Shown here in pieces: positions 11,487-49,640 of a stretch of 64,000 bases of DNA. Below the pieces are notes generated by a model. The model searched no databases, was not told where the DNA came from, and was given only the letters and a program-made list of their open reading frames with translations. The position numbers and the translations under genes were made by a program. Position 1 is the first letter of the stretch, and each line of letters starts with the position of its first letter. The stretch is from an uncultured Gammaproteobacteria bacterium (GTDB lineage Bacteria; Patescibacteriota; Patescibacteriia; UBA11705; DATKZF01), in assembly GCA_964411255.1 (NCBI GenBank), contig CAYPKD010000005.1:5547-69546 (forward strand), given 5' to 3'.

Positions 11487-11519
11487 TGTTGAAAATGTTT
11501 AATAATTCCCAATTTTCAT

Positions 11520-13844: not shown

Positions 13845-13871
13845 GTTTGGACACAATAATAACAATAAAAT

Positions 13872-19036: not shown

Positions 19037-19037
19037 A

Positions 19038-19166
19038 ACCAGCATTTCTGCTGTACGCCTGCCAGTTTCGTGGTCAGCGGCAGAGATGCCGCTTGATTCA
19101 GTGCAGGCGCTTACAAGCACCATTTCTGGTGCTACCCAAAATGACAGCAGAAATGCTGGTTTTTTG
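19038..19166 (+). other. Branched G+C-rich structured element closed by a 17-bp perfect stem plus T-run (complex terminator or small RNA)
   Basis: ACCAGCATTTCTGCTGT (19038-19054) pairs with ACAGCAGAAATGCTGGT (19144-19160), then TTTTTT. Inner hairpins are GCGGCA-GAGA-TGCCGC, AGCACCA-TTTC-TGGTGCT and CGCCTGC/GCAGGCG. Confidence 0.6.
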
Positions 19167-19215
19167 ATATTTCGATAAGGTGTGATAAGATAATATATGA
19201 TTATCTAGGATAAAT

Positions 19216-26070: not shown

Positions 26071-26094
26071 AATTTACTAGAAGATTGAAAATGG

Positions 26095-27213
26095 TTAATT
26101 CAGAAGAGAATTATATATTTGCAATGTCCTTTCCGCGCATTTTTGCCAGGAATATTTTTTTGTTTGCTCAAATCCTTTGTTAATCAGATTCTGTTTTTTA
26201 TTTTCATCTGAAATAACCTGATACATTTTATCAGCCATTTCATTTGGGTTTTTAGGATCAAAATATTCTGCTGCATTTCCTAATACTTCTGGCAGACTTG
26301 AGGTATTTGATGAAACTACTGGTGTGCCGCAAGCCATTGCTTCAATACCGATTAGGCCAAAGCCTTCAATAAAAGAAGGAATGACATAAATGTCTGCTGC
26401 ATTATAAAATACCGGTAAATCCTTATTAGAAATAAATCCTGGTCTAATAATATCTTTTTCTAAGCCAAGCTTTTCCCAGGTTTGGCGCACTTCAGGATAA
26501 TGAGGATCTTCATTGCCGCCAATAACCAGTTGATAGTCCAGATTATACTTGTTTTTCAAAACATGAAAAGCACGGATTAGGCCAGGTAGATTTTTATGAT
26601 TGCGCCAAACGCCAACATAAAAAATAAAAGGCTTGGATATCCCGTATTTTGCTTTTACTTTATTAATTATACCATAATCTTCTATAACCCGGAAGTCTGA
26701 TTTTACCCCCAAATAAGTCACAGTTATCTTTTTAGCTGGTACTTTAAAATACTTAATTACATCGTTTTTTGTACTTTCTGAAACAGTGATAACTTTTTTG
26801 GCCCGAGTGACTGAATTTTTAAAAACAAAACGAAATCCATGTCTTCTTACCCATGATGACATTCGATGACCTGGAAAATGATGTGGAGTGACATCATGAA
26901 TAGTGACAACTGATGGCTTAAAATAAAAAAATGGCGAATTAAAATGCGGATAATGAATAATATCAATTTCTTCCTTTAAAAATTGGAGTGGCAATAATAC
27001 TTGCTCAGCATAGCTATACCAGCGGGGAGTTACTTTTACTTTTGTTACATTTTCGTTAAAAACCTGAAATTCAGAAAATTGCGGTTCTCGCAAATACAAA
27101 ATATATTGATTATTCTTATCAATTTTAAAAAGATTGTCTGTTAGATTTTTAATATAATTGCCAATGCCAGTTTGGGCTGAGCCATACATTCTGGCATCGA
27201 TTCCTATTTTCAT
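26095..27213 (-). CDS. Glycosyltransferase family 4
   Basis: GT-B C-terminal EGFGLIGIEAMACGTPVV motif. Confidence 0.9.
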   Translation of the reverse strand: MKIGIDARMYGSAQTGIGNYIKNLTDNLFKIDKNNQYILYLREPQFSEFQVFNENVTKVKVTPRWYSYAEQVLLPLQFLKEEIDIIHYPHFNSPFFYFKPSVVTIHDVTPHHFPGHRMSSWVRRHGFRFVFKNSVTRAKKVITVSESTKNDVIKYFKVPAKKITVTYLGVKSDFRVIEDYGIINKVKAKYGISKPFIFYVGVWRNHKNLPGLIRAFHVLKNKYNLDYQLVIGGNEDPHYPEVRQTWEKLGLEKDIIRPGFISNKDLPVFYNAADIYVIPSFIEGFGLIGIEAMACGTPVVSSNTSSLPEVLGNAAEYFDPKNPNEMADKMYQVISDENKKQNLINKGFEQTKKYSWQKCAERTLQIYNSLLN

Positions 27214-27420
27214 AAAATTATGAATAATTATAAATGAAATGAATGCTTATTTATTACAAATAATTATGAATTATCTATTACGAAACTACAAATCAACTAC
27301 ATAAACTACGAAAGCCAGGGTTTGTAACTGCGAAAGATAAATTATAGATTGATTTGTAAATTTATTGCTAGTATGTTAATTTTACCAAAAAGAGGATCTT
27401 TATAAAAGGAGAGTAGGAAA

Positions 27421-27753
27421 ATGAGACAGATGCCCTGGGAAAAAGTGAAAGGAAATTTGTTTTTTTTATTAAAACCTGATACTGAACCAACCTATGTTAT
27501 GAGAAATGGTGTACCAACAGCTATTATAATGGGCATTAATTATTTTAAACGATTAGAAATAGCCGAGGTGACAAGATTATCTTTGATAGAGTTGAGAGAA
27601 TATTTTAGCAAATGGTCGCAAAGATCATCAAAGGCAGCGATTGTATCTGTAAATAAAAAGGAAATGATGGCTATTATGGGAATTAATTTTTACAGGATGA
27701 AAACAAGAGCTTTTAAGGTAATAGATGGTGGAAAAAATAAAACTTCTGGATAA
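27421..27753 (+). CDS. 110-aa protein with two tandem Phd/YefM-antitoxin-like half-domains
   Basis: SD AAAGGAGAG. Internal duplication PTAIIMGINYFKRLE / MMAIMGINFYRMK. Confidence 0.55.
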   Translation: MRQMPWEKVKGNLFFLLKPDTEPTYVMRNGVPTAIIMGINYFKRLEIAEVTRLSLIELREYFSKWSQRSSKAAIVSVNKKEMMAIMGINFYRMKTRAFKVIDGGKNKTSG

Positions 27754-27767
27754 AATCTGGGAGTTTT

Positions 27768-28907
27768 TTATTCATTGATTGTTTTAAAAAAATTTTCTGC
27801 TGTTTGTTGCCAATTGAATTTTTGCACCTGGACAGATCCTTTGCCAATCAGATTTGCCCGTAAATTATTGTCACCTAAAATTTCTTTAATTGCCCAAAAA
27901 ATTTCATTAATATTATACGGATCAATAAACAGAGCTGTATTTTCGCAAATTTCAGTCAGTGATGAAGTGTGGCTGGTAATTACCGGTGTTCTGCAAGCCA
28001 TTGCTTCAAGTGGTGGAAATCCAAATCCTTCATAATATGAGGGATAGATAAAAATATCTGACAAATTATAAATATAAGGCTTGTCTTCAATGTCAATATA
28101 GCCTGGGAAAAAGATTTCGTTTTCCAATTTTAATGTTTGAATTAAATTAAATATTTCATTATATTTCCAGCCTTTGGCACCGGCGATTACCAGTTTATGG
28201 GGGAAATTTGTTTTTTTCTTTAATAATGCAAATGCTTCAACTAGTGACTCAATGTTTTTTCTTGGCTCAAGCGTGCCCAGGCTTAGAATAAATTTGTCAG
28301 GTAAATTGTATTTTTGTTTTATTTCTCCTTTTTTATCTTTTGAAAAATTAATATTTACACCAGAATAGACAACTTCTATTTTATTTGGATTAATATTATA
28401 TAAATCTATTAAATCGCGTTTAGTATTTTCTGAAACAGCAATTATTTTATGTGCATTTTTAAAAATTTGCCTGCAATCAATTGATTTATGCCAGATTCTT
28501 CTTTTTAAAGAATAAAAATATGGAAATATTTCAAAAGACAGATCATGGGCGGTTATAATATACTTTCCAATGGGTGATATTGATAAAAAGTTAATGTTTG
28601 GGAAAAAAAACATATCAACTTTTTTATTATATTTGGACAGAATCAGAGAGTCTAAAAAAGGACGTTCAAAAATCTTAATACAAGCATTTAATATTTTATT
28701 TGGGTAAGTAAATTCACACAAAGTTATATTATCCTGGCAGAGGCCGTTAATATGTTTCAGATAAGGTTCTCTTTTATTATAAAATAAAAAATATTGATTT
28801 TGAGAATCAATATTAAAAAGATATTTTAATAAATTAAAAGTATATTCGCCAACTCCAGTCAGTTTTTTTTCCATTAATGATCGAACATCAATGGCAATGT
28901 TTTTCAT
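27768..28907 (-). CDS. Glycosyltransferase family 4
   Basis: EGFGFPPLEAMACRTPVI motif. Confidence 0.9.
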   Translation of the reverse strand: MKNIAIDVRSLMEKKLTGVGEYTFNLLKYLFNIDSQNQYFLFYNKREPYLKHINGLCQDNITLCEFTYPNKILNACIKIFERPFLDSLILSKYNKKVDMFFFPNINFLSISPIGKYIITAHDLSFEIFPYFYSLKRRIWHKSIDCRQIFKNAHKIIAVSENTKRDLIDLYNINPNKIEVVYSGVNINFSKDKKGEIKQKYNLPDKFILSLGTLEPRKNIESLVEAFALLKKKTNFPHKLVIAGAKGWKYNEIFNLIQTLKLENEIFFPGYIDIEDKPYIYNLSDIFIYPSYYEGFGFPPLEAMACRTPVITSHTSSLTEICENTALFIDPYNINEIFWAIKEILGDNNLRANLIGKGSVQVQKFNWQQTAENFFKTINE

Positions 28908-28911
28908 ACTT

Positions 28912-30015
28912 TTATCTGCTAGAAATAAAATAGTTATCCTGTTTTATGACTTCTTTTATTTTTTTCTTAAATTGCTCAGTATCAAACTGCAGGGCATGAT
29001 TTCGGATCTGCTCTGAATCAAAATGAAATTTTTTAAAATGCAAAATTTGATAAGCTAAATCTTCCCAATTTTGCTCTTTGAAAAAAAGTCCGGTCTGGGC
29101 ATCAATAATTGTATCTAAAGCGCCGCCAGCCTGATAAGCTATAACTGGCCGGCCAGAGGCCATTGCTTCAACAGCAGTGATGCCAAAGTCTTCTTCCTGC
29201 GGATTAATAAACGCCTGGCAGCTGGCATAGAGTTCAGCTTTTTTAGCATCAGTTACATTTCCTAAAAATTCAACATTTTTCTTTGCCATTTTTTTTAATC
29301 TGCTGTAATCAGGACCAGTACCAAAAATTTTTAAGGGCATATTTAATCGATTAAAAGCCGTAACAGTTAAATCAAATCGTTTATAAGGCACAAGTCTGCC
29401 GCCAGTTAAAAAATAATTTTTCGGAGTATTATTTATATAAAATTTTGAGGTTTCAACTGGTGGATATATCACCAGGCTATCCTGTCCATAGTATTTTTTA
29501 ATTCTTTTTCTGACTGTATTTGAATTTGCAATAAACAAATCAACCCGGTCAGCTGCCAGTTTATCCCACATGCGCAGTTTGCTTAAAGCTAATGGCAGGA
29601 ATTTTTTTATCAATCGGTTTTGTTTCAGGTTTTCAACATAAGTCTGGCTGTCAGTCCAGAGGTAGCGGGTGGGAGTATGGCAATAGCAAATATGTTTTGT
29701 GTTTGGTTTGGTGATAATCCCTTTAGCAAAGGCTGAGGAGCTGGAAATTACAGTATCAAAATTTGATAAATCATAATTTTCAGTAGCTGCTGGCATCCAC
29801 AAAAGAAACCATTGGTATTTTCTAATGCCTAAGGGCAGTTTTTGCAAAAATGACGGATTAACCTGCTTTTCTTTCATGTCATCATTCATTTTTTTCTTAT
29901 CATAAACCAGGGTATATATTGGACTTTGCGGAAAAACATCATGTAAAGTACGCAAAACTTTTTCAGCTCCGCCTTCTTGGGTCAGGTGATCATGTACTAA
30001 TGCAATTTTTGCCAT
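28912..30015 (-). CDS. Glycosyltransferase family 4
   Basis: EDFGITAVEAMASGRPVIA motif. Confidence 0.9.
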   Translation of the reverse strand: MAKIALVHDHLTQEGGAEKVLRTLHDVFPQSPIYTLVYDKKKMNDDMKEKQVNPSFLQKLPLGIRKYQWFLLWMPAATENYDLSNFDTVISSSSAFAKGIITKPNTKHICYCHTPTRYLWTDSQTYVENLKQNRLIKKFLPLALSKLRMWDKLAADRVDLFIANSNTVRKRIKKYYGQDSLVIYPPVETSKFYINNTPKNYFLTGGRLVPYKRFDLTVTAFNRLNMPLKIFGTGPDYSRLKKMAKKNVEFLGNVTDAKKAELYASCQAFINPQEEDFGITAVEAMASGRPVIAYQAGGALDTIIDAQTGLFFKEQNWEDLAYQILHFKKFHFDSEQIRNHALQFDTEQFKKKIKEVIKQDNYFISSR

Positions 30016-30087: not shown

Positions 30088-30195
30088 GAAAACAGATATT
30101 AATTTGTTTCCGTTTTATATCTGTTGCTATCCGCTTGCCCCGAGCGACCTGTCCTGAGCGAAGTCGAAGGAAGTTGAGGCGTTGATCCGTTTCTA
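30088..30195 (+). repeat. Shared intergenic hairpin element, copy 3 (5' arm deleted, no downstream ORF)
   Basis: AAAACAGAT..TTCCGTTTTATATCTGTTGCTATCCGC.., insertion CGAGCGACCTGTCCTGAGCGAAGTCGAAGG, then GTTGATCCGTTT. Confidence 0.65.
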
Positions 30196-30230
30196 TTAAA
30201 AAACTCTGCATTATTGTAATACAGAGTTAA

Positions 30231-31943
30231 TTATCGGCGTTCACACATGATCCTTGCTTCTTCATAGACTGGTGAATCAGATGGCAATTGCTGTAAGATT
30301 TTTTCAATTTTGCCATCACCATAAGCAGACATTTCAGCTAATTCTCCTAGTGCCCAAATTCTATTATTATTATCTAATTTTTCATTTAATATTAACTGTT
30401 CAAAAGCTTGCTCATCATCAAATTGTCCAATTCTACTGAGAACATCAGTTAATAAATCATTGTCAAATCCACCTAATTCAACATTTTCATTTAGAATTTT
30501 ATCTAATAATATTAAGAATATTTTAACATTTGAGCAATGCTCAATCAATGAAAATTTATACTGATATTCTTCAGTAAGATCTATATCTTCATCATCATCA
30601 TGTAATTGTAGATCTAAGATATCTTTTAATAATTCAAGATCAGTAATATGTTCAGTAACAACCACAGGACGCAAATTACATTCTTCGGTTAAAGCTTTTT
30701 TTAACCATTTAAATAAAATATTTTGGTCTATAAATTGAGCCCTATCCAGCATTTGCTCAAAAAGCCAATCATCATTTTGATCTAATGAATGAGAACAAAG
30801 AGTATCTATATTTTTAGATTTTTTTATTCTTTTTATAGCTAATTGACGCAGATCCTGTTCTTCATCCTGATCTGCAGCAATATCGATAAGCAAATCTTCA
30901 TCTTTTACTTTAGCAATTATAAATCTTTTTGCTTTGATTACATCTTCGTTTTCTTCATCTCCACTTTCATTTTCAAATTTTTTGAAAAATTGATAGCAAT
31001 CAGCAAGTACTTCTGGATCTCTGATTTCTATTAAAGCACGATGTCTTACTTTTACGTGCAATTTCATTTTTGATACTAATTCAAATAATTCTTCATCATT
31101 CAAATCTAATCGAGTTATAGCTTCTATTTTGTGTACAATGTTAATACCCTGAGTAAAAATCATTCTTTTGACTAAATCTGGATCTTTAATCCGATACATA
31201 ACATCTCTGAATAAATATCCACTTTCTGCCCCAAAGTGTTCGAGGATTGTGAAAAGCAGTTCTTCATCTTGAATTTTGTTCATTGCTACGTTAACATACC
31301 CAGATTTAGTAAATGGAGGTTTTTGCTCTGTCACAAATCGAATAAGAAATAGTTCATCATTGATTTTTTCTATTGCTCTTTTTGTAATATCCTCATCAGT
31401 TGAGTTTTGTGCAATTTCTTTTAGAATATTTTCGTATTCATCATCAATAAAGTCCATTGCCTCACAATTTGCCTGTTCAATTGCCAAATATTTAAATAAA
31501 CCTTGAATTCCATGATAATCCAACATTGCAGTAATTTTTCTATCCCAGGGAATGAAAACAAAAGTTAATTTTCTGTCTTGCAATACTTGTAATTTTAATC
31601 CGCGAGAGGTTTCTCCTAATACCAGACCAATAGTGTAATCATCTTTTTCTGCTGTATCCTGAAAGGACACTATTGTATCAGGTGGAAATAAATAATCATC
31701 AAATCCCAGATCTTCCAGAGTTCTGCTACACATACTTTGAAAAAGTTTAATTGCCACCTTTTTTTGTCTGGGAGTCATTTGTTGATCTGCTTGCAGATCA
31801 ACTCTAACCTGAAGTCCAACATCTGTGTTTGAGATATCGCTTGGTCTATAGCGTTTAATAATTTTTCTGCCAGATTTAGCGACTACTACGGTTCGCCAGA
31901 TTGTATTATCTGAATCTGATGTCCAGAACTGTCGTTCGCTCAT
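30231..31943 (-). CDS. 570-aa alpha-helical repeat protein (HEAT/ARM-like I-x-D-x-x-L-L repeats)
   Basis: SD AAGGAG. Recurring IQDEELLFTILE, IKDPDLVKRMIF, VKDEDLLIDIAADQ..LRQLAIKRI, ITDLELLKDILD. Confidence 0.8.
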   Translation of the reverse strand: MSERQFWTSDSDNTIWRTVVVAKSGRKIIKRYRPSDISNTDVGLQVRVDLQADQQMTPRQKKVAIKLFQSMCSRTLEDLGFDDYLFPPDTIVSFQDTAEKDDYTIGLVLGETSRGLKLQVLQDRKLTFVFIPWDRKITAMLDYHGIQGLFKYLAIEQANCEAMDFIDDEYENILKEIAQNSTDEDITKRAIEKINDELFLIRFVTEQKPPFTKSGYVNVAMNKIQDEELLFTILEHFGAESGYLFRDVMYRIKDPDLVKRMIFTQGINIVHKIEAITRLDLNDEELFELVSKMKLHVKVRHRALIEIRDPEVLADCYQFFKKFENESGDEENEDVIKAKRFIIAKVKDEDLLIDIAADQDEEQDLRQLAIKRIKKSKNIDTLCSHSLDQNDDWLFEQMLDRAQFIDQNILFKWLKKALTEECNLRPVVVTEHITDLELLKDILDLQLHDDDEDIDLTEEYQYKFSLIEHCSNVKIFLILLDKILNENVELGGFDNDLLTDVLSRIGQFDDEQAFEQLILNEKLDNNNRIWALGELAEMSAYGDGKIEKILQQLPSDSPVYEEARIMCERR

Positions 31944-32191
31944 TAGCTTCTCCTTATGGCAGGTTTGTTATTAAGCAAGCGTCCTTGCAAAGCAGGGCTG
32001 TCCAGCAGAGATGACTGGATAGCAAAATACAGGTCCCAAAAGGGAAAATTGTAAATGTGCAGGCCTTCTTGACGTCTCAAGAAAAGGCAAAAATAAATGA
32101 AAAATCACTTGCTTTTGCCTTTTCTTGTTTGAGTAAAGTTAACATTTAATATTGCTAGTGTCAAGCATGTATATAAATAAAATAGCCTTTT

Positions 32192-32351
32192 AAAAAACAG
32201 GCCCGTTAGGCCTGATTTAATCTTTTTCAATTTCGGCTTGTGCCGACCTACTTTTTGCTGCCAAAAAGTAGGCAAAAAGCACTGGGGGGCTTCAAATGCG
32301 AAGCAACGATTAAGTTTGAGGATCGCCCCAAGGGCAATCAGCCCCCCAGAC
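32192..32351 (-). ncRNA. Candidate about 160-nt small RNA (unknown family)
   Basis: Weak promoter (TTGTAA, 15 nt, TAGAAT at 32357-32383). 10-bp closing stem 32282-32291/32340-32349 with two inner hairpins. 11-bp hairpin CCTACTTTTTG/CAAAAAGTAGG. TCGGC-ACAA-GCCGA. Terminator CAGGCC-TAACG-GGCCTG plus TTTTTT. Confidence 0.4.
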
Positions 32352-32385
32352 CCCCGATTCTATTGACGAATTATTTTTTACAAAA

Positions 32386-32412
32386 GACCACCAGTTTCCT
32401 GGTGGCTTTTAT
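32386..32412. terminator. Bidirectional Rho-independent terminator
   Basis: GACCACCAG-TTTC-CTGGTGGC, with T-runs on both strands, directly after the stop of 32409..32744. Confidence 0.7.
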
Positions 32413-32744
32413 TCTAATTCCTTTCTCAATTTTTTTATTTCTGCTTCAGTATCTTTTGATTTATCTTGTTTTTTTACATCTATTATTCTTTGAGTTAACA
32501 TTTGTTGTGATTTTGCCAGAGCTGCTTGACGATTTGTTTTTATTTGTTCATGCATTTTTTTAGCTTCTGCTACTTGTTTTTGAGCCAGTTCTTCAAGTTC
32601 TTGAGGAGTTTTTGTTTGCATTTCAATAATTAAGTTTAATTCATCTTCAGTCAGATCTTTAGCCATTGAAAGCAACTTGTCTTTTTTTGCTTTTGGCAAA
32701 TTTGATTTTTTTATTTGAGTAATTATTTTCTTTTTTTTATCCAT
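32409..32744 (-). CDS. 111-aa Lys/Glu-rich coiled-coil protein
   Basis: Start is 1 nt from the upstream stop (translational coupling). No family recognised. Confidence 0.65.
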   Translation of the reverse strand: MDKKKKIITQIKKSNLPKAKKDKLLSMAKDLTEDELNLIIEMQTKTPQELEELAQKQVAEAKKMHEQIKTNRQAALAKSQQMLTQRIIDVKKQDKSKDTEAEIKKLRKELE

Positions 32745-32745
32745 A

Positions 32746-33111
32746 TTAAATTGCTTGGGCTATTCTCATAAGCTGACCAGTAATATAAATTGCTTTTGAC
32801 AATCTTTTATGCTCTCGAACCCAGTTGTTAAATTTAGCTCTGTTGGCATTGGCTTCATCTCTTATGTTCTCTTCGGCTAACTGGGATATTTCCAAAACGC
32901 GCTCATCGTCTTCATCTACACCCAGATCTTCAGCCAGTTGAGCAGGATCTCCTTCCCATATGTTACTCTCTTCAAATTTTTTTAATTCTTCTTCTGATAA
33001 TTCTTCAAGCTCGCCGCTTTCCAGCATTTCAAAAAAATTCTGCTCTTCTTCAGGAGTAGATATTTGTTCTGGAGCTTCAAGCTCAGGTTGTAATTGTTCT
33101 ATATCAACCAT
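32746..33111 (-). CDS. 121-aa strongly acidic protein
   Basis: No SD. A -10-like TATACT ends 9 nt before the ATG (possible leaderless mRNA). No family recognised. Confidence 0.6.
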   Translation of the reverse strand: MVDIEQLQPELEAPEQISTPEEEQNFFEMLESGELEELSEEELKKFEESNIWEGDPAQLAEDLGVDEDDERVLEISQLAEENIRDEANANRAKFNNWVREHKRLSKAIYITGQLMRIAQAI

Positions 33112-33140
33112 ACGATATTAGTATAACATATTACATTTTA

Positions 33141-33350
33141 CAAACAAAAAACAGCCTGCCAAAGAGACTGTTTTTTGATATTATCATTGGGATTACTGAT
33201 TTGATATTACTCTAACATCACACTGTTGCCAAGAAAAGATAGTTGGAGAGAGGTTTAAAGAACATCTATCTCTTTTGGCAAGCAGTGTGATGCCAAAGTT
33301 TGTTTACAAACTCCAGAGGAATTAGGAGCAGATGAGTGCTCCTAAAGGAA
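33141..33350 (-). ncRNA. Hairpin-dense 3' UTR or candidate sRNA downstream of the DHH-like gene
   Basis: AGGAGCA-GATGA-GTGCTCCT, AGTTTG-TTTA-CAAACT, a long imperfect hairpin 33216-33242/33266-33292 (about 23 bp), then terminator 33146-33176 with T-run on the minus strand. Confidence 0.4.
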
Positions 33351-33353
33351 AGA

Positions 33354-34199
33354 TTAGGAAAAGAGAGAATTGGCAGTTTCTGCCAGTTTGACAGGATCTA
33401 CGTTGGAAGGACTGGTAGCCGGAGCCTTTCTGGTACCGCGACTGAAAAGAAATCCTGAAGAATGGGCAAACCATTGATCCAGTTCACCCTGCTGTTCAAC
33501 TATTTCTCGAAGCTGGGGATGATCCATGCGCAAAGTCTGTGATCCCTCGCGGAAAATACCCAGACTATGGCCGTCTACGTAGACAATGGCTTTTACACCA
33601 CGCTCAAACAAAACATATGAGGTGGCGCAGTGTCGCATGTTTCTGAGAATAGCCACATTGTCTCCAGGCAAAATTTCAGCCTCATTAGCTTCAATCTTAG
33701 CCATTTGACGGGATCGGCCAGCTTTCAGCATACCATCAAAGATTTCTGACATGCATTCGATAACAGTATCGTCCCGGCCAGGAAAAATAGACTGGAAAGC
33801 ACGAAGTACTGAATTGATGCCGGTCAGCGAGAAGATTTGCTGCGCTTCATCATTGATTTCAGGCGCCAGGAATTTGACAGCAGAGCCATGAGCATCCTGG
33901 GCATCAATGAATGTAACCAGCGGAGCAAGAGCTTCCTGGTCATTTTTTGAAGCCAGTTTTGAAATGATAGTGGCAAAACAGGAATGTACTGTGCCATCAT
34001 CATCTTTTTTGCCTTTTACTCCTTTGCCGCCAGCTTCAATGTCAACGGCAACAGCTTTATCCTCATTGAGTCCAGTCCCGTCCCAGTTAGCTGGGCGGAA
34101 ACAAACTTCAGCATCCATGTATGCTTCAGCAAAAGTACGGATAGCCCATACAGATGCCACCGCATCAAGGTCCACGTTCATGTGGGTAAAAATTTTCAT
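33354..34199 (-). CDS. DHH-superfamily-like phosphoesterase (divergent)
   Basis: SD AAAGAGAGG. Motif I-like THMNVDLDAVAS, AVAVDIEAGG, FIDAQDAHG (DHH appears as DAH), FAHSSGF near the C-terminus. Confidence 0.55.
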   Translation of the reverse strand: MKIFTHMNVDLDAVASVWAIRTFAEAYMDAEVCFRPANWDGTGLNEDKAVAVDIEAGGKGVKGKKDDDGTVHSCFATIISKLASKNDQEALAPLVTFIDAQDAHGSAVKFLAPEINDEAQQIFSLTGINSVLRAFQSIFPGRDDTVIECMSEIFDGMLKAGRSRQMAKIEANEAEILPGDNVAILRNMRHCATSYVLFERGVKAIVYVDGHSLGIFREGSQTLRMDHPQLREIVEQQGELDQWFAHSSGFLFSRGTRKAPATSPSNVDPVKLAETANSLFS

Positions 34200-34317
34200 T
34201 TTCGCCTCTCTTTGTTGTGAAAAATTTCCTCTGGAATTTGCAAATTTTTAATTAACACTCTTCGAAATTTATTAAAAGTTAATAAATTTTGGAGAGCGAA
34301 GGAATTTTGTAATTCCT

Positions 34318-34635
34318 TCAGATTTGAGGTAGCGGCCAAAGCTGACGAAGCTGTTTGTCAAAGAATTCGTAAGCTTCAAAATCAGCACCGCAAAGTGTGA
34401 GTTTTGCAATTACTGGTATGAGTTGATTGTGCTCTGCTTTATTGGTGATTACGACATATGAATGGTAAGCAGAGGGATTGAAGTCATTGATTATGACATA
34501 GTCCAGTTTATCTGGCGGGGTCATCCAGTGTGAATCAATGGTAATAACCTGATCAAACTGAAAGCCTTCTTGTCTGGCTAGATCAATGATTTCAGTTGTG
34601 ATTGAACCGAACCAGAACTGGATCAGTATTTTCAC
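34318..34635 (-). CDS. 105-aa hypothetical protein
   Basis: Start re-assigned to GTG 34635, with AAAGGAG 6 nt upstream. The track's ATG at 34698 has no SD. Confidence 0.6.
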   Translation of the reverse strand: MKILIQFWFGSITTEIIDLARQEGFQFDQVITIDSHWMTPPDKLDYVIINDFNPSAYHSYVVITNKAEHNQLIPVIAKLTLCGADFEAYEFFDKQLRQLWPLPQI

Positions 34636-34739
34636 TGAAAGCTCCTTTTTAAAAAAATTTGAAAAAAAACACTCGAATCTAACAAGAGATCCAAGCATTT
34701 TTTCGTACGAAAGTCCGCTTAAGACTCTCTTTCAAAATT

Positions 34740-35100
34740 TCCAAATAAGTTTTAGAAACTTTGAGAGATCGGAGAGTGCAGTGCTCACTCTCCGATGTCC
34801 GTTGCTTTAACCCGTAGGAGGCAGCTTTAGGTGCCTATGCGTTTTAAGGATGCAAGCGTTAAAGATCTCGGCTTGTTCATCCTGTTACCCATCCCCACTA
34901 GAGGATGTATTGGGTGGTTAGCAGAATTTTATACAGGCGCCTCTGCCAGGGCGCAGATGTAAACACATTGATGACAGATTATTATCTCTTGCCACCAAAT
35001 TAATGTTGTGAAGAGCCTTGTTGCTCTTCTCTGAATTCTGAAAATAAATTTCAGAACTCGGAGAAGCTGAGGATGGTTTGACGCATCCTCAGATATTTCC
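34740..35100. other. ORF-free G+C-rich segment with at least 8 stable hairpins (unknown structured RNA or element)
   Basis: Hairpins at 34768-34796 (11 bp perfect), 34813-34841, 34848-34882, 34888-34914, 34937-34954, 35010-35029, 35031-35061 and 35067-35092. Stops occur in all frames. Confidence 0.4.
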
Positions 35101-35126
35101 TTTCTTAAAATTTGGAGGTGAATAAC

Positions 35127-35567
35127 CTAGGCCTCTTTGTTTTGGCTCTGAGCTTCAGCTTCTGCCTGGGCCTTGGCCTGCTTGAGTGCAGCCTTGGCTT
35201 TGGCTTCAGCTTCGGCCTGCTTGCGCTTTTCAGCGTCAAGTTTGGCCAGACCACCGAGGCCTGTGTTGGGCGCACCACCAGCGCGGCTGGAGCCCTGCCG
35301 TCGGCGCTTGATTTCCAAGCGCTTGAAGCGGGGATCACCATGCTGATGCTTTGCCTGGCGGCGGCGCTGGTTGCGGCGCTGGCGGCGCAGATTACGCTTG
35401 GCGCGAAGTTCATCACGCTCAACCTTGACCTGCGCACGTCGCTCAGCATTCTCAGCTTTGCGAACCAGCTCCTGCCATTTCTTCAGGCCACCATGACGGC
35501 CGCAGAAACCGCGGCCAGCCAGGACATCAGCCGTACACCCGTCATGCTTACACTTTTCCACCTTCAT
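35127..35567 (-). CDS. 146-aa Zn-knuckle (C-x4-C-x10-C-x2-H) plus Arg-rich plus Ala/Lys/Glu-tail protein, probable nucleic-acid binder
   Basis: SD GGGAGG 5 nt before the ATG. Contains EKCKHDGCTADVLAGRGFCGRHGG and RRQRRNQRRRQAKH. Chosen over two overlapping ORFs that lack signals. Confidence 0.6.
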   Translation of the reverse strand: MKVEKCKHDGCTADVLAGRGFCGRHGGLKKWQELVRKAENAERRAQVKVERDELRAKRNLRRQRRNQRRRQAKHQHGDPRFKRLEIKRRRQGSSRAGGAPNTGLGGLAKLDAEKRKQAEAEAKAKAALKQAKAQAEAEAQSQNKEA

Positions 35568-35620
35568 GTGGGCCTCCCTATATAAAAAGATTAATAGACA
35601 TTTTTGTCAAAATTGCTGAA

Positions 35621-35766
35621 AGGACGATGTAGGTGAGATGCCAAAGAGATTTGAAGGGACTTAAATAGATTTATTTCCCTTATCTCAATATGGGCAAAAT
35701 ATGCTCAGCCAATCTAATCGCAAGCGAATAGATCAGCATGAACTTCTCTCTCCTCTACATCGTTCT
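35621..35766. other. About 145-nt three-way-junction-like element
   Basis: AGGACGATGTAGGTGAGA (35621-) pairs with TCTCTCCTCTACATCGTTCT (-35766). Inner hairpins are GAGAT..AAGGGA/TCCCTT..ATCTC and CTAATCG-CAAG-CGAATAG. Confidence 0.4.
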
Positions 35767-35780
35767 GTTCAGAAATTAGA

Positions 35781-35815
35781 CATATAAAAACAGACTGAGA
35801 GAACCATGTCTGTTT
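35781..35815 (-). terminator. Terminator-like hairpin inside the long leader (possible attenuator or sRNA 3' end)
   Basis: Minus strand reads AAACAGAC-ATGGTTCTCTCA-GTCTGTTT followed by TTATAT. Confidence 0.4.
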
Positions 35816-35891
35816 AAAATACAGCTTTATAATCTAGCTGACTCTCTCTCCATGAAATTTGTTAGATTTCAATTTTCGATTTTGATTTAGT

Positions 35892-35920
35892 ATTATAGCA
35901 TATTTTTTTAAAAAAGTCAA
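35892..35920 (-). promoter_or_regulatory. Near-consensus sigma70 promoter reading toward 35567
   Basis: Minus strand reads TTGACT, 17-nt spacer, TATAAT. Confidence 0.55.
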
Positions 35921-36045
35921 GACGAGAGCATAATTTAAGTCGTTTTTTGTCTAAATTTACGGAAATTACAAATTTGCTAAACTGGTAAATTAATTAAAAT
36001 TTTAGTAAAAATATTACGAATAATTACGAATTAGCAAGGCTGTTA

Positions 36046-36074
36046 TTGAAAAGCATATATTTAATTGGTAATAT
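36046..36074 (+). promoter_or_regulatory. Sigma70-type promoter
   Basis: TTGAAA, 17-nt spacer, TAATAT. Confidence 0.45.
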
Positions 36075-36110
36075 GATAGAGCCTGTTTTCATGCGGAAAA
36101 GGAGAAAACC

Positions 36111-36545
36111 ATGCAATCATCACCAGAGCTTGGTGTATATGTGGTATTAAAAGACGGTGTAGAAATTGCACGACATCAAAGTGTGGAAAGATTACATGAA
36201 CAATTTCCAGATTGGAATGATGATGAATCAATTAGCATTGTTTATAAGCCATCTGAGGCAGAAAAAGAAATATTACGTGAACTTAAATTATTTCGATCTG
36301 GTGGGAATGTATTAGCAGAGCATGTAGATCCTTTTATTTTACATAGACAATTATTGGAAAAGCATGGAGATAAATGGATAAAAGAATATGAAGGACAATG
36401 GCTGGCAGTTGATGTTGAAAGTGAGCTGGTTATTGATCATGATTGGATGTTGGCTGATTTAGCTGATCGAATTCATGCAAGCAATAAAGATAATAGTAGA
36501 CTAGTCTTATTGTTAGGGATTTCAGATAATGATTTTATAATTTAA
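36111..36545 (+). CDS. 144-aa hypothetical protein
   Basis: SD AAAAGGAGAA. The C-terminal half (YEGQWLAVDVESELVIDHD..) faintly recalls DUF5678-type domains (weak). Confidence 0.6.
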   Translation: MQSSPELGVYVVLKDGVEIARHQSVERLHEQFPDWNDDESISIVYKPSEAEKEILRELKLFRSGGNVLAEHVDPFILHRQLLEKHGDKWIKEYEGQWLAVDVESELVIDHDWMLADLADRIHASNKDNSRLVLLLGISDNDFII

Positions 36546-36580
36546 AAAGCACTAATATTCAAAATATAGTGCTTTTTTAT
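36546..36580. terminator. Bidirectional terminator between convergent genes
   Basis: AAAAAGCACTA..TAGTGCTTTTTT. Confidence 0.65.
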
Positions 36581-36595
36581 TTATTTTCAATTTAA

Positions 36596-38023
36596 TTAAA
36601 TAGCATTTTTACCTTTAATCACTGCCCATGGAGTTTTTAATAATATCCAAAAATCAAGTTTTAGCGACCAGTTTTCAATATAGAAAATATCCATTTTTGC
36701 TTCTTCATCAAATGGCAAATCGCTTCGACCACTGATTTGAGCAATACCAGTTATTCCAGGTTTTATATCTAAGGTTCGTAATTGCTCTGGCGTATATCTT
36801 TCAACTTCTCTTGGCTGGTGAGGCCGAGGGCCAACTATGCTCATATTTCCGATAAAGACATTGAAAAATTGAGGCAGCTCATCAATGCTGATTTTTCGGA
36901 TAAATCTGCCAACAGCAGTTACGCGGGGATCTTTTTTTATTTTATATAAAGCACCTCTGGACGCCCCTTGTTCTTTTATTAATTTTTTTTCAAGTTCCAA
37001 TGCTTGTTTACTTGATGGTGCATCTGGCCCTGTACTCATATCCCAATACATTGATCTGAATTTGTATACATTGAATTTTTTTCCATTTTGGCCAACTCTT
37101 TCATTCTTATATATAATTGGCCCTTTTGAATTAATTTTTATGGCAATAGCTGTAAATAGCATTATTGGTGAAGATAAGATTATAAAAATAATTGAACTAA
37201 ATAAATCAGAAAATCTTTTAATAATTTTTTTCCAGCCGTCCAGTGGTGTCTTTTTTATTTCAATTACTGGCAGACCAGCAATCATGTGCGTTTCAATGTT
37301 GGTAGCCCTGGCTTCAAAAGGACCGGCAACATATTTAAAAATAATATGATTATATTTGGCAAAATTGATCAATGAAATTGTATCTTTTCTTGAGATATTT
37401 GGATCAGTTTGAATGATTTCATCAATAAATGTTTTTTTATGAAGAGCTTGAATTTTCATTAATGTGTCTTGATTAAACTGTTCAAAATGTTTGAGAATTT
37501 TTAATCCTAATGAAGGTTGTTTTAAGATTGCATTTTTTACAGCATTAGTATTTGAATTTTTTCCAATAATTATAATTTTATGAGTTCCCCAGCCAGTTTT
37601 ATATAAACTATTTTGAACGATTCTAATTATCATTCTGCCAACAATTATGAAAAGGATGCTGAAAAGCCAGGCAAACAAAATAATAAATCTTGATTCAAAA
37701 AGTTCTCTGACAAAGAACATATATAGAATAATTGCAGTCATGCCAGTAGAGCAGGCTAATATAATCCTGGCCATTTCATCAGTGACTTTTGTTTTTTTAA
37801 ATTTATAAAGAGATGACCAAAAAAAGAAAATCAGCCATATTGCAGCCATTACAATTAGTACACCTAAATATTTATTAAATTCCAGATCAAATACAACCGG
37901 CCTTATTTCAGTAACTGATTCAATAAAACGCAGAGAATAAGCGGTAATACCAGCCAATATTAAAAGAAAGTAGTCAGTGACCAGTTTTATAAGTACAAAT
38001 ATTAATTCTGATTTTTTTATCAT
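36596..38023 (-). CDS. Polyprenyl-phosphate sugar phosphotransferase (WbaP/exopolysaccharide priming enzyme family)
   Basis: Multi-TM N-terminus. C-terminal DELPQFFNV..GNMSIVGPRP and KPGITG motifs (Bac_transf). Confidence 0.9.
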   Translation of the reverse strand: MIKKSELIFVLIKLVTDYFLLILAGITAYSLRFIESVTEIRPVVFDLEFNKYLGVLIVMAAIWLIFFFWSSLYKFKKTKVTDEMARIILACSTGMTAIILYMFFVRELFESRFIILFAWLFSILFIIVGRMIIRIVQNSLYKTGWGTHKIIIIGKNSNTNAVKNAILKQPSLGLKILKHFEQFNQDTLMKIQALHKKTFIDEIIQTDPNISRKDTISLINFAKYNHIIFKYVAGPFEARATNIETHMIAGLPVIEIKKTPLDGWKKIIKRFSDLFSSIIFIILSSPIMLFTAIAIKINSKGPIIYKNERVGQNGKKFNVYKFRSMYWDMSTGPDAPSSKQALELEKKLIKEQGASRGALYKIKKDPRVTAVGRFIRKISIDELPQFFNVFIGNMSIVGPRPHQPREVERYTPEQLRTLDIKPGITGIAQISGRSDLPFDEEAKMDIFYIENWSLKLDFWILLKTPWAVIKGKNAI

Positions 38024-38031
38024 AAATTTGT

Positions 38032-38071
38032 TAGGCTGGTAGATCGGTAGGTTAGTAGGTTGGTAGATTTA
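38032..38071 (+). repeat. TAGNNNGG-type 8-mer array
   Basis: TAGGCTGG TAGATCGG TAGGTTAG TAGGTTGG TAGATTTA. Confidence 0.65.
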
Positions 38072-38151
38072 AAAAAAATTGGAAGAAGGACGCTACTAAT
38101 ATTATTGCAATTTTTTGTAAAAATTTCAATAATAACATCCACCTTCCAATT

Positions 38152-38762
38152 GATCCAAACAGGTCTATAAGCCGAATTCTGTCCCACCAGAGGCGGGGAT
38201 GATCATCTATCTAGTCCCGAGATTACTCTCGGGATCAAGCGAGCTACCAAACTTGCTCTTGCACCAGATAAGGTTTACCACCACCTAATGTTACCATTAG
38301 GCAAGAGAAGTATAAATTAAATAGTCACGTGAACCATTTAACTTTTTTCCTTCTCACTTTTCACCTTTCACCACTGCTACGCAGTGGAATTTCTAAATCC
38401 TAATTTTTTAAACTCTGAACAATTTTCAAATTTTCGAAAGGTTTTAAACATTAGAACATTTGAATTTCGAATTTGTTTAGAATTTCGTATTTCGAATTTA
38501 GCGCTTCCATTGCGCAACAATGGCTAGTATAGTCTCTGTGGCACTGGCTGTCGTCTAGGTTTATTAATTATCCTAGAATCGCCTGGGAGTTACCCAGTAT
38601 CATACCGCAGATTACGCTGATTAGCCGATTACGCAGATTGCAGGACTTTTTTTTATCAGCGTAATCAGCGTAATCTACGGTCAGGTGTTCGGACTTTCCT
38701 CCGGCCTACGCTTTTCACTTTGTTCAAAGCTTCGGCTGGCGATCATCCAACCTATTTGGATC
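38152..38762 (-). ncRNA. rnpB: RNase P RNA (bacterial type A core) with large insertions, about 611 nt
   Basis: Minus strand has GGAGGAAAGTCCGAACAC (CR-I/P4 5'), GTGCCACAGAGAC, GGTAAACC and ACAGAATTCGGCTTATAG (CR-V/P4 3'). P1 pairs GATCCAAATAGGT with ACCTGTTTGGATC; P2 pairs GGATGATC with GATCATCC. Confidence 0.88.
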
Positions 38763-38886: not shown

Positions 38887-39660
38887 ATGAGACGAGTAAG
38901 GCAATTGACATATTTTGTTGTAATTTCGTTTATTCTCATGTATGTCAATGGATGTTCTTTATATTCTGAAAATGATCGTTCTTTTTTAGATGATCAGAAT
39001 AGACAGTCTGCTCGAAGAACAGTTCGTTCAGATGATTCTATAGATCAAAATCCTAATCAGCTAAAGCGGGAAAAGATTATTCAAGTAGCTCAGGCAAAAC
39101 TTTCTTTGGAAGAATTTGCTCAGGCTGAACCTTTGAAAAGATATTGTGATATTACTGGCACCAGCTTTGAAGTAGAAAAGATGCCAGTTACTATTTCTCA
39201 TGCTGGAAGAGAAGTATATGTGGAAACTGAATTAAAGGATTCAACTCTTTTTAAAGAAAATGCAACAAAAGTGCTGGGCTGGTGGAAGCGAAATTACCGG
39301 GTAAGAAAAGTAGAAGATAAGGGTCTGCGCTTGGTCACCATGCTGAAAATTCCAAGAGCAGCCAAATATGATGATGTTGCCAAGGCAATATTTGAATTCT
39401 ATCAAAAGAATTTTCAAAATATTGTTATTTCAGTTATTTGTCGGGAAATGAATAACTGGGCAGTTGATGAATATCCAAATGATTTTTCTGTGGTGATTGA
39501 AAAAAAACAGGAAAATCAGACCCAAAAAGAAGACAAGGCTGCTGCGAAAAAGGCAGCAAGGGCTGCTGCGAGAAGGGCGGCAAGGGCTGCTGCGAGAAAG
39601 GCAGCAAAGGCTGATGCAAAAGAACCAGCCAAACCTCCTGCAAAAAAAGCAGATGAATAA
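38887..39660 (+). CDS. Lipoprotein with Ala/Lys/Arg-rich (histone-H1-like) C-terminal tail
   Basis: SD TAAGGAGGAA. Lipobox YVNGC. Tail is AAAKKAARAAARRAARAAARKAAKADAKEPAKPPAKKADE. Confidence 0.75.
   Translation: MRRVRQLTYFVVISFILMYVNGCSLYSENDRSFLDDQNRQSARRTVRSDDSIDQNPNQLKREKIIQVAQAKLSLEEFAQAEPLKRYCDITGTSFEVEKMPVTISHAGREVYVETELKDSTLFKENATKVLGWWKRNYRVRKVEDKGLRLVTMLKIPRAAKYDDVAKAIFEFYQKNFQNIVISVICREMNNWAVDEYPNDFSVVIEKKQENQTQKEDKAAAKKAARAAARRAARAAARKAAKADAKEPAKPPAKKADE
39538..39633 (+). repeat. 24-nt tandem repeat, about 3.5 copies, in-frame
   Basis: GCTGCTGCGAAAAAGGCAGCAAGG / GCTGCTGCGAGAAGGGCGGCAAGG / GCTGCTGCGAGAAAGGCAGCAAAG, plus a degenerate copy. Confidence 0.85.
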
Positions 39661-42198: not shown

Positions 42199-42205
42199 AT
42201 ATTTT

Positions 42206-42245
42206 TAGATTGGTAGATCGGTAGATTTGTAGATTGGTAGTTAGA
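42206..42245 (+). repeat. TAGNNNGG 8-mer array, left flank of the four-helix-bundle pseudogene
   Basis: TAGATTGG TAGATCGG TAGATTTG TAGATTGG TAGTTAGA. Confidence 0.8.
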
Positions 42246-42246
42246 A

Positions 42247-42629
42247 TTATTTATTATTTAATTCTTTAGTTTTTGAATTTGTCATTTTATTCAACATTCG
42301 CATGACTTCATTTAATAAATTATCAACTTTTAAAAAATTTAATTTTTTTCCAAATGGTAGACGATTGGCAATTTCTATTTGAGTTTCTAATTCTGCCCCG
42401 GAAGCATATGCTACTATTAAAAAGTGACGATATTCTTTTATTGTTAGTCGTTTTTTTCCTTCAGCGATATTCGAGGGGATAGATATAGCTGTTTTTCGTG
42501 TATGTTGAATTAATCCAAATGATTCAATTTTCGGATATTATTCTGTTAATTCATAGACCGCGACAACTAAATCCATTGCTTTTTGCCAAACAATTAATTT
42601 CCGGTAATCCCCAGGTTGATTAATTTCAT
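42247..42629 (-). pseudogene. Four-helix-bundle protein (23S rRNA intervening-sequence protein family), disrupted
   Basis: ..YRKLIVWQKAMDLVVAVYELTE*YPKIESFGLIQHTRKTAISIPSNIAEGKKR..YASGAELETQIEIA. In-frame TAA at 42538-42540, plus a frame offset between the ATG (42629) and the conserved frame. Confidence 0.75.
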
Positions 42630-42673
42630 TTTAAAATAATTTCCCATGTACTTTTATCCTATCATTTAAATCT

Positions 42674-42713
42674 CTACTGATCTACCAATCTACCGCCCTA
42701 CCGAACTAACTTA
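42674..42713 (+). repeat. Inverted partner array (CCNNNCTA words), right flank of the pseudogene
   Basis: CTACTGAT CTACCAAT CTACCGCC CTACCGAA CTAACTTA, the reverse complement of the TAGNNNGG family. Confidence 0.8.
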
Positions 42714-49539: not shown

Positions 49540-49556
49540 TAATTTTGAGAATTGGA

Positions 49557-49633: not shown

Positions 49634-49640
49634 AATAAAT

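Follow-up and report, generated by a model that had tools for sequence, protein, structure and literature searches.

We examined a 64-kb window of contig CAYPKD010000005.1 (assembly GCA_964411255.1), in which a 6.5-kb region (30088-36595) encodes seven proteins, p570, p111, p121, p281, p105, p146 and p144, and contains four segments free of open reading frames (ORFs). The window has a guanine-plus-cytosine (G+C) content of ~34% and a Patescibacteria-type gene set, and its proteins have relatives that carry the label Patescibacteria or Moranbacteria. Profile searches confirmed that the region lies within a glycan locus, with three GT4 genes, DUF4012 and a CLIPPER/DUF11-like gene on the left (21465-30015, minus strand) and a Bac_transf priming transferase on the right (36596-38023). 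A first-pass annotation, made from the sequence alone, had described the region as an accessory island wedged into this glycan locus, and the reading of it as one foreign block did not survive comparison with related genomes. The best explanation overall, and one that we consider reasonably probable, is that the region is an old, clade-conserved, RNA-rich locus that serves as a hot spot for gain and loss of single genes, and not a recent import.

The features of the region are listed in Table 1. The comparison loci used throughout were those of a sister species (L009, L010, L011, L022) and of L023, L017 and L019, four lineages that together with the window species make up the five lineages referred to below. 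The ORF-free segments are named A (31944-32408), B (33112-33353), C (34636-35126) and D (35568-36110).

Table 1. Features of the 6.5-kb region, in window coordinates.
Feature	Coordinates	Strand	Comparison and remarks
Small hairpin repeat, third (partial) copy of its family	30088..30130	-	Other copies at 12526-12577 and 16559-16610; not here in sister
Small palindromic element, 'CCTGAGCGAAGTCGAAGG' type	30134..30180	.	Sister copy lies beyond the shared terminator, inverted
Intrinsic terminator common with sister	30202..30228	-	Ends p570 here; in sister, ~110 nt after p111
p570, acidic ORFan with its own Shine-Dalgarno motif	30231..31943	-	Not in sister, L023 or L017
Segment A, species-specific DNA	31944..32408	.	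Not in L010 or L023; folds equally on both strands
p111, Lys-rich coiled-coil, translationally coupled to p121	32409..32744	-	In sister and L023 (48% identity); not in L017 or L019
p121, acidic	32746..33111	-	In sister (92% identity) and L023 (68%)
Hairpin-B RNA, ~165 nt	33137..33301	-	Kept in all five lineages; fold, covariation
p281, two-domain DHH/DHHA1 fold (model)	33354..34199	-	This species and sister
p281 5' untranslated region and hairpin after p105 stop codon	34200..34317	-	86% identical to sister
p105, GTG start, AAGGAG Shine-Dalgarno motif, small alpha/beta protein	34318..34635	-	In sister, L023 and L017
Deletion scar of p61	34636..34662	-	Sister and L017 keep a 61-68-aa ORF overlapping the p105 start
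Segment C, hairpin-rich	34663..35126	-	Terminator only at 34663-34704
p146, small very basic protein	35127..35567	-	Coding by substitution pattern
p146 leader RNA	35568..35891	-	Kept in all five lineages; covariation
Near-consensus promoter TTGACT-17-TATAAT, extended TG	35892..35920	-	-10 region TATGATATAAT conserved in five lineages
p144, acidic	36111..36545	+	This species and sister only

All seven ORFs named by the first-pass annotation were found where it had placed them, and six are coding by their substitution pattern against the sister species, with no stop codons and no frameshifts; the coding pattern of p570 was not comparable, there being no homologue for alignment. Third-position changes predominate in five of the six testable ORFs (changes by codon position were 14/14/46 in p146 and 36/18/132 in p281), the exception being p144 (19/11/18), which evolves fast at all positions. 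The start of p105 is most likely a GTG at 34635, with the 126-aa ORF an upstream extension, and the p121 mRNA is probably leaderless, with TATACT 9 nt 5' of its ATG. Strong Shine-Dalgarno (SD) motifs precede five of the seven genes, compared to ~9 of 39 genes elsewhere in the window, as had been claimed. Searches of all seven proteins against Pfam, PHROG, PADLOC and NCBIfam profiles returned nothing significant, and hence no integrase or transposase domain, and PDB sequence searches with p570 and p144 had no match. No tRNA was found in the region, and profile, tRNA and repeat scans together upheld the reported absence of integrase, transposase, tRNA and flanking direct repeats. The left edge was read correctly as a truncated copy of an intergenic element; it is a ~40-nt copy of a hairpin that occurs twice more in the window (Table 1).

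Synteny and base composition

The site holds a common core in all four related lineages, in which the flanking transferase is 69-92% identical and G+C ranges from 38 to 49%. This core consists of the promoter, the leader, a p146-like ORF and hairpin B, and p105 is found in four of the five lineages. Gene order from p111 to p144 is identical in the sister species, at ~80-85% nucleotide identity. The L023 locus (G+C 41%, with a transferase 84% identical across the available part) reads transferase, leader, p146-like ORF, two other ORFs with ~1.5 kb of ORF-free DNA, p105, a 185-aa ORF, hairpin B, p121, p111 and GT4; no p281, p570 or p144 was found at this locus. L017, a Patescibacteria metagenome-assembled genome (MAG) with a transferase 76% identical and a G+C of 48.5%, has the order transferase, 92-aa ORF, promoter/leader, p146-like ORF, ~1.65 kb of ORF-free DNA, a p61-like ORF overlapping p105, hairpin B, an 880-aa gene and GT4 genes, where the 92-aa ORF occupies the p144 position and appears GxxExxY-like by eye. 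In L019 (transferase 69% identical, G+C 46%) the GT cluster is inverted and p105 is absent, and the leader, p146-like ORF and hairpin B still lie beside the transferase. An empty site, with the transferase directly beside the GT4 cluster, was seen in no relative examined.

Individual genes around this core have come and gone. Both L010 and L023 are missing p570 and segment A, and in L010 p111 is followed by ~110 nt and then by the terminator that ends p570 in the window; this shared terminator indicates that p570 and segment A (~2.2 kb) are an indel. p281 is missing at the site in L023, L017 and L019, and since p105 and hairpin B are adjacent in L017 and p281 lies exactly between them in the window, p281 is a single-gene insertion. 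A loss of 207 nt at ~34656 in the window removed p61. From flank to flank the gene content varies in every lineage, with p570, p281, p144, p121/p111 and genes for 880-aa, 185-aa, 193-aa and 145-aa proteins among the differences, and these differences point to a hot spot around a fixed core, not to one imported block.

The fixed core would comprise the promoter, the ~320-nt leader and the intrinsic terminator inside it, p146 and the long 3' region rich in hairpins, a p61/p105 operon and the ~165-nt hairpin RNA, with the priming sugar transferase and the GT4 cluster always as its neighbours. The operon has lost p61 in the window and is absent in L019, and p281, p570 with segment A, p144 and p121/p111 would be later additions. 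Conservation of the same genes as core in related genomes, which the first-pass annotation had named as evidence against an island, was found for the leader and p146, the hairpin RNA and p105 (four of five lineages), but not for p570, p281 or p144. The locus resembles genomic islands and variable hot spots in that the content between two conserved flanks differs in each lineage, and is unlike them in having no integrase, tRNA or direct-repeat boundary and in holding a conserved, non-mobile RNA/protein core. Two further candidates for comparison were set aside: L021, from a metagenome scan, was a chance match, and L018, whose transferase is 46% identical, has a different locus type that is uninformative for synteny.

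The region had also been described as G+C-richer than its surroundings, which windowed G+C and G+C at third codon positions (GC3) bore out only in part. G+C is raised only in 33.3-35.6 kb, where GC3 is 0.40 in p281, 0.41 in p105 and 0.62 in p146, compared to a background of 0.267 +/- 0.030 in the other genes of the window; values for p570 (0.20), p111 (0.14), p121 (0.28) and p144 (0.17) are at or below that background. A composition that differs across the whole element, as is looked for in genomic islands, was therefore not found. The relatives have the same pattern, with GC3 for p146, p105 and host genes of 0.60, 0.51 and ~0.20 in L009 and 0.88, 0.74 and ~0.50-0.60 in L017 (0.62, 0.41 and 0.27 in the window); in L019, which has no p105 gene, p146 is at 0.84 and host genes at ~0.55, and in L023, where p146 was not cleanly measured, p105 is at 0.57 and host genes at ~0.26. 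Because p146 and p105 exceed the host genes in every lineage, whatever the G+C of the host, the excess is a maintained intrinsic trait, which in our reading includes the untranslated regions of the two genes, and is not evidence of import.

Leader RNA, hairpin-B RNA and the ORF-free segments

Folding energies, expressed as z-scores against dinucleotide shuffles, support the description of the ORF-free DNA as hairpin-dense. Segment A scored -7.7 and -8.0 on its two strands, segment B -8.6 to -10.1, segment C -8.5 to -9.8 (-8.5 on the minus and -4.5 on the plus strand) and the p146 leader, which is part of segment D, -5.3. For comparison, twelve other intergenic sequences of the window ranged from +1.2 to -4.8, one more, 56723-57009 (+), reached -7.8, and RNase P RNA, the positive control, scored -13.8. 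The intergenic 42199-42713 also folds strongly (z ~-4.5) and, like 56723-57009 (+), has no Rfam match. The claim that the ORF-free DNA is full of internal promoters and terminators held for terminator-like sites, which are enriched (13 compared to 4.9 +/- 2.3 expected), but not for promoter-like sites (25 compared to 18.5 +/- 4.4).

Segments B, C and D are more conserved against the sister species than the coding genes are. Identity is 93% in segment B and 85% in segments C and D, and blocks of 40-120 nt at 35768-35887, 35648-35687 and 34996-35035 are 100% identical, whereas coding identity is 78% for p281, 74% for p105 and 83% for p146, with 30-47% of third codon positions changed. Segments B and C fold better on the minus strand, which is the gene strand. 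Hairpin B has many G-U pairs, which would be mismatches on the other strand, and these pairs together with the strand advantage argue for a structure in RNA rather than in DNA.

The leader is ~320 nt long and can be aligned across all five lineages. It contains a first GA box (GA box 1, 35844-35852, UUGGAGAGAG), a terminator with the motif UUCUCUC (35784-35815) and a second GA box (GA box 2, 35746-35754, GAGGAGAGAGA), which is basal to a multi-stem domain whose closing helix has 16 bp. RNAalifold predicted 71 pairs, 20 compensatory, with 91% of cells paired compared to 35-45% when slid, and 0 of 500 shuffles reached the observed value, a test that overstates significance because only five related sequences went into it. 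The terminator helix is 95% paired and is followed by an invariant U run. Hairpin B consists of a ~95-nt stem-loop (33207-33301), a linker with AAUCCCAAUG and a terminator (33145-33177) with a U tract, and its loop, GAUGUUCYUUAAAYCUCUCUCCAAC, is invariant in the five lineages. By the same analysis it has 48 pairs, 9 compensatory, with 93% paired compared to 37-50% slid, and again 0 of 500 shuffles did as well. On this evidence of conservation and covariation, the leader and hairpin B are candidate RNAs of known kinds, a terminator leader and a hairpin small RNA, that belong to no described family. The RNA-centred module proposed in the first-pass annotation gained partial support: conservation of the leader and hairpin B exceeds that of the genes, and both RNAs show compensatory changes and fold better on the gene strand, but p281, the phosphoesterase that it had included, lies outside the conserved core.

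The two RNAs may be linked. Apart from the loop itself, the 64 kb contain a single exact 9-mer complement of the hairpin-B loop, which lies in the leader, and the best duplex between loop and leader lands on GA box 1 or GA box 2 in all five lineages. GA box 1 and UUCUCUC are also complementary to each other. In the mechanism that we propose, transcription of p146 would be set by attenuation in the leader: GA box 1 paired with UUCUCUC would permit read-through, and GA box 1 left unpaired would allow the terminator to form and transcription to stop. The CU-rich loop of hairpin B, being complementary to the GA boxes, may bind them competitively, which would give feedback on p146. We regard the chances that the leader is an attenuator as evenly balanced, and an interaction between the hairpin-B loop and the GA boxes as doubtful.

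Attenuators and riboswitch-type leaders use alternative terminator and antiterminator structures, and attenuation driven by antisense RNA operates in replication control of pT181 and pIP501. The arrangement here is like these systems in having a long conserved leader between a strong promoter and an ORF, a terminator with a U run inside the leader, an upstream box complementary to part of the terminator, and a separate hairpin RNA with a loop complementary to that box. It is unlike them in that Rfam gives no match even at E = 5, that the loop-box pairing is only 9-10 nt and statistically modest, that the proposed antiterminator is without covariation support, and that the gene for the putative regulator RNA lies 2.6 kb off on the same strand and is not antisense. 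The hairpin-B loop motif had no match in viral contigs, and ten matches there to the leader motif were all chance matches inside coding DNA.

Segment C is a run of strong hairpins that begins at the p146 stop codon and closes with a strong terminator (34663-34704), with no earlier terminator, and is probably the structured 3' untranslated region (UTR) of the p146 transcript. Compared to the sister species, 8.6% of paired and 23.6% of unpaired positions are substituted, with no compensatory changes. Segment A contains the bidirectional p111 terminator (32387-32406), a G+C-rich hairpin, an 'CCTACTTTTTGGCAGCAAAAAGTAGG' palindrome, a second terminator (32198-32214) and the promoter and 5' UTR of p570; its equal folding on both strands indicates palindromes and not a conserved RNA. 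Small palindromic elements at 30153-30170 and 32243-32268, with others at 2621-2637 in L010 and 11866-11897 in L019, give rise to ghost ORFs ('LRLRSGQ', 'PTFWQQKVG'). The different places of these palindromes in the sister species and L019 suggest mobile mini-elements in the clade, and the CCTGAGCGAAGTCGAAGG-type element behaves like one, being inverted and on the other side of the shared terminator in the sister species. In L017, two hairpins within the 1.65-kb ORF-free stretch (13995-14050 and 14295-14365) have loops of tandem ATCATGGA/GCATGGA units.

No gathering-score match to the 4227 families of Rfam 15 was found in the window or in L017 except for the RNase P RNA of the window (38152-38758), which is outside the region, and for 31900-36200 there was no credible match even at E up to 5. 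Integron cassettes with attC sites, a retron, a type III toxin-antitoxin system, transfer-messenger RNA (tmRNA)/SmpB and 6S RNA were each considered and rejected, as there is no integrase, reverse transcriptase or repeat array, ARAGORN and Rfam were negative, and the shapes do not fit.

p281, p105 and other features

The seven proteins had been described as orphans, which holds for p570 and nearly so for p146, but not for p281, with homologues in at least 147 clusters (mostly 43-60% identical) in Patescibacteria MAGs, or for p105, which belongs to a small family. The AlphaFold model of p281 has a predicted local distance difference test (pLDDT) score of 96.3 and a two-domain DHH/DHHA1 fold; its best structural matches were NrN, RecJ, NrnA and PggH, the nearest being PggH and NrN. 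The same structural neighbours have been reported for NrN itself (Chi et al., 2023, PMC10600005). In motif I of the family, H6 is present in at least 90% of 39 sequences and D10 and D12 are invariant, and in motif II D53 is invariant. Motif III has the consensus [FY][VI]Dx[QH]DxxG, in which D99 and D102 are conserved (D99-x-x-D102-x-x-G105) and position 104 is H, Y, T, F, R or S. The earlier assignment of p281 as a DHH-like phosphoesterase is thus supported at the level of the modelled fold but not by the DHH histidines, which are not conserved. Pfam DHH/DHHA1 profiles did not match p281, a PDB profile search was empty, and the protein has a weak match to Pfam ChrB_C (E 0.017), with one homologue, P0116, above the ChrB_C cut-off (28.3 compared to 25 bits); the literature on PF09828/ChrB_C contributed nothing useful. 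Because p281 fails the DHH-motif test we have not classed it as a DHH phosphoesterase or as NrN, though it may work like one.

Homologues of p281 occur in diverse contexts: in L004 beside ribonucleotide reductase, in L006 after TrmB and UvrA, in L024 among genes for ribosomal proteins, SecY and translation, in L038 among other housekeeping genes such as those for RRF, MreB and an aminoacyl-tRNA synthetase, in L026 beside a large serine recombinase, and on three phage-like contigs that bear terminase or come from IMG/VR (L008, L037, L016). P0116 (46% identity) is found in a type III CRISPR locus, L025, between JAB-ThiF and Cas10/RAMP genes, where no CorA was seen. In two low-G+C Patescibacteria genomes (L004, L006) the p281 homologues are G+C-richer than their neighbours, and this excess, together with the varied contexts, fits a moving gene. 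Searches of GenBank phages by tblastn with p281 and p105 had no match. Structured UTRs did not prove to be a general trait of p281 loci, and a 582-aa neighbour of the homologue in L004, considered as a possible relative of p570, is unrelated. We take p281 to be a mobile, non-canonical DHH-fold protein that probably acts as a phosphodiesterase or binds a small nucleotide messenger.

NrN is a S-adenosylmethionine-AMP (SAM-AMP) phosphodiesterase of the DHH family that functions in CorA-type type III CRISPR systems, and its residues D85, H86 and H87 are essential (PMC10600005; PDB 9lq9). p281 is like NrN in its two-domain DHH/DHHA1 fold of ~250-280 aa, in its structural neighbours and in having one homologue beside Cas10. 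It differs in having no detectable sequence similarity to NrN and in replacing DHH with D-x-x-D-x-x-G that has no conserved His, and its family consists mostly of stand-alone genes in Patescibacteria or on phage-like contigs; also unlike NrN, it has no CorA or cas gene near it within the 6.5-kb region, which is as far as the search for such genes extended. The L025 locus (1-14279) encodes RT-Cas1, Cas2 and Cas6 (RT, reverse transcriptase) and has a JAB-ThiF fusion gene immediately 5' of the p281 homologue, which is followed by a 1072-aa protein without a domain match, Cas10 and RAMP genes, and it may be an undescribed signalling variant. On the L006 Patescibacteria contig, an 866-aa protein with major-vault-protein shoulder domains is encoded at 17341-19941, 7 kb from the p281 homologue.

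The small p105 family has conserved motifs of its own. Its model, built with six sequences, has a pLDDT of 78; CARF domains dominate the top structural matches, SSO1393 among them, with other Rossmann-like folds nearly as good. CARF Pfam families matched none of nine family members at E up to 10, and NCBIfam and PADLOC searches were also empty, so that we describe p105 as CARF-like at fold level only and with moderate confidence. Stand-alone CARF ring nucleases of the Crn1 type include SSO1393/Sso2081 and Sis0811 (PMC9638899, PMC8284326). p105 is like these in being a small single-domain Rossmann-like protein of ~100-130 aa, and unlike them in having no CARF profile match, no type III context here and its own motifs. 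A small nucleotide ligand may be handled by p105 and p281.

Of the other proteins, p146, the putative Arg-rich RNA-binding protein of the first-pass annotation, has a net charge of +23, is rich in Ala, Arg and Lys and evolves fast, so that a central RRQ..GG.P.TGL..L..LD motif is all that its relatives share; outside this species and its sister the Zn knuckle does not occur, and no match to p146 was found in viral contigs. A search of 5.8 billion proteins with p570 found only p570 itself, making it a true, species-specific ORFan. It has a ~30-aa periodic 'I-x-D-x-E-L-L' motif, found by eye and by regular-expression search, and by eye looks alpha-solenoid or HEAT-like.

Several features elsewhere in the window are also worth recording. 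About 32 of its 46 genes have no SD motif within -18 to -3, and those that do are the genes of the region and a few others (starts at 9023, 27421, 38887, 41076 (-), 57414 (-) and 57875 (-)). Short tandem arrays lie immediately 5' of the start codons of SD-less genes (38024-38074, 42199-42248, 42674-42705 and 11013-11036). Before the transferase and aminoacyl-tRNA synthetase genes the unit is CTACCNNN, present 4-5 times on the minus strand, and the arrays upstream of the transferase gene in relatives use other units (..TTACCC.. in L009 and ATTTGTAA, with a period of ~10 nt, in L017). These start-codon arrays may be a feature of translation initiation. The RNase P RNA (38152-38758, minus strand, Rfam 139.6 bits) is unusually long at 607 nt, and 97% conservation against the sister species is confined to the part at 38071-38368; the 21 kb of L017 gave no RNase P match. 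Adjoining it is p257 (38887-39660), which has an Ala/Lys/Arg-rich C-terminal tail that resembles that of p146, and a homologue in L017. An 86-nt palindrome of ATTACGGA-like units (49551-49636) lies just 5' of a gene that starts at 49641.

Competing explanations and significance

The interpretation of the region as an old locus built around regulatory RNAs, with gene turnover around them, has to be set against several observations that weigh against parts of it. The best duplex between loop and leader, scored against shuffled leaders, has z-scores of only -1.8 to -2.6, with 2-11 of 200 shuffles as good, and the preferred box varies by lineage. The proposed antiterminator pairing between GA box 1 and UUCUCUC was not chosen by RNAalifold, and both elements are nearly invariant, with only G-U-compatible changes seen in L019, so that covariation lends it no support. 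Hairpin B may simply be a 3' UTR; a promoter-like TTACAA-18-TATAGT was seen by eye upstream of it in L019, and elsewhere it follows a gene that has no terminator. In the minimum free energy fold of segment C, 15 of 25 pairs changed relative to the sister species are broken, and among distant relatives, in which the region measures 0.9-2.9 kb, only its two ends align, for which reason segment C was rejected as one big conserved RNA. The p146 protein is itself poorly conserved, and the variable DHH histidines mean that enzymatic activity of p281 is not assured.

Import of the whole 6.5 kb as one island into a formerly contiguous glycan locus would account for GC3 values of p281, p105 and p146 that are 4.5-12 standard deviations above background, for the SD enrichment and for the ORFan or nearly ORFan status of p570 and p146, and it is true that p281, p570 and p144 are lineage-specific additions. 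This reading is nonetheless largely refuted, and we consider it very improbable: the core is syntenic in four relatives, down to 69% transferase identity, in each lineage the excess in G+C follows the host, G+C does not rise above background in half of the region, no mobility domain, tRNA or flanking repeat is present, and no relative has the empty site. Very improbable too is the idea that the ORF-free segments are decayed pseudogenes or selfish palindromic junk akin to repetitive extragenic palindromic (REP) sequences or miniature inverted-repeat transposable elements (MITEs). One real decay event is known, the p61 loss, and segment A, species-specific and folding equally on both strands, with palindromes elsewhere in the sister species and L019, has such a character. 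However, tblastn of all the extra proteins of relatives against the region revealed no pseudogene remnant, and tblastx of segments A-D returned only the nucleotide-level hairpin-B match, in all frames, which is not the result that the first-pass annotation had expected of decayed genes; moreover, conservation is higher in segments B, C and D than in coding DNA, and the leader and hairpin B covary. A further alternative, unlikely in our judgment, is that the hairpins have no regulatory role and are mRNA-stabilising stem-loops and terminators around highly expressed, SD-led genes. The near-consensus promoter and the strong SDs in a genome mostly without them are consistent with this, as are the independent, near-perfect hairpins of segment C that end in a strong terminator, its highly variable length among relatives, and stems that are better conserved than loops with no compensatory changes. 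Such stabilisers would have no need, however, of leader and hairpin-B loop sequences kept across lineages 15 G+C points apart, including an unpaired loop of 21-25 nt and the GA boxes, and a terminator conserved inside a 5' leader is characteristic of attenuators rather than of stabilisers.

It is also possible, though somewhat unlikely, that p105 and p281 are the heart of the locus and the RNAs mere context, in which case the two proteins would form a nucleotide second-messenger module of a CARF-like sensor or ring-nuclease-like protein and an NrN-like phosphodiesterase. Such a module would bind and destroy a cyclic or linear oligoadenylate or SAM-AMP-type signal, and its purpose would be anti-defence or immune evasion, or that of an off switch. 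In favour of it are PggH and NrN as the folds closest to p281, and the position of P0116 between JAB-ThiF and Cas10/RAMP genes; the homologues on phage-like contigs give p281 a distribution like that of viral ring nucleases, and p105 and p281 are adjacent on the same strand here. On the other side, p105 occurs without p281 in L017 and L023, and p281 without p105 in all ten other contexts examined, so the two are not an obligate pair. The p105 model is of moderate quality and generic Rossmann-like folds score nearly equally, the CARF families match none of the p105 family, p281 is without the DHH histidines, and no CRISPR-like repeat array was seen in the window. Less likely again is a combination of the two ideas, a self-contained riboregulatory circuit, kept by a Patescibacteria clade at one fixed place in the chromosome, of an attenuator leader and an invariant-loop hairpin RNA wired to a nucleotide second-messenger pathway, in which p105 would be a minimal CARF-like sensor and p281 a His-less DHH phosphodiesterase that erases signals resembling cyclic oligoadenylate or SAM-AMP. 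If this were true, the p281 family would serve CRISPR type III loci, phages and epibiotic bacteria alike, and CRISPR-type signalling chemistry would operate outside CRISPR in ultra-small bacteria.

Returning to the interpretation that we prefer, an old RNA-rich core with single-gene turnover around it, there are consequences for how such genomes are read. For island prediction, it implies that raised G+C over part of an AT-rich genome need not mean foreign origin. The distribution of p281 resembles that of signal-degrading enzymes common to defence systems and viral antagonists, which makes this uncharacterised family a candidate for biochemical tests. Patescibacteria genomes are rich in unannotated DNA, and to our knowledge almost no regulatory RNAs have been described from these organisms. 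The leader of ~320 nt and the hairpin of ~165 nt would add two candidates for new RNA motifs, kept across differing G+C contents, without an Rfam match, and tied to a specific putative target relationship.

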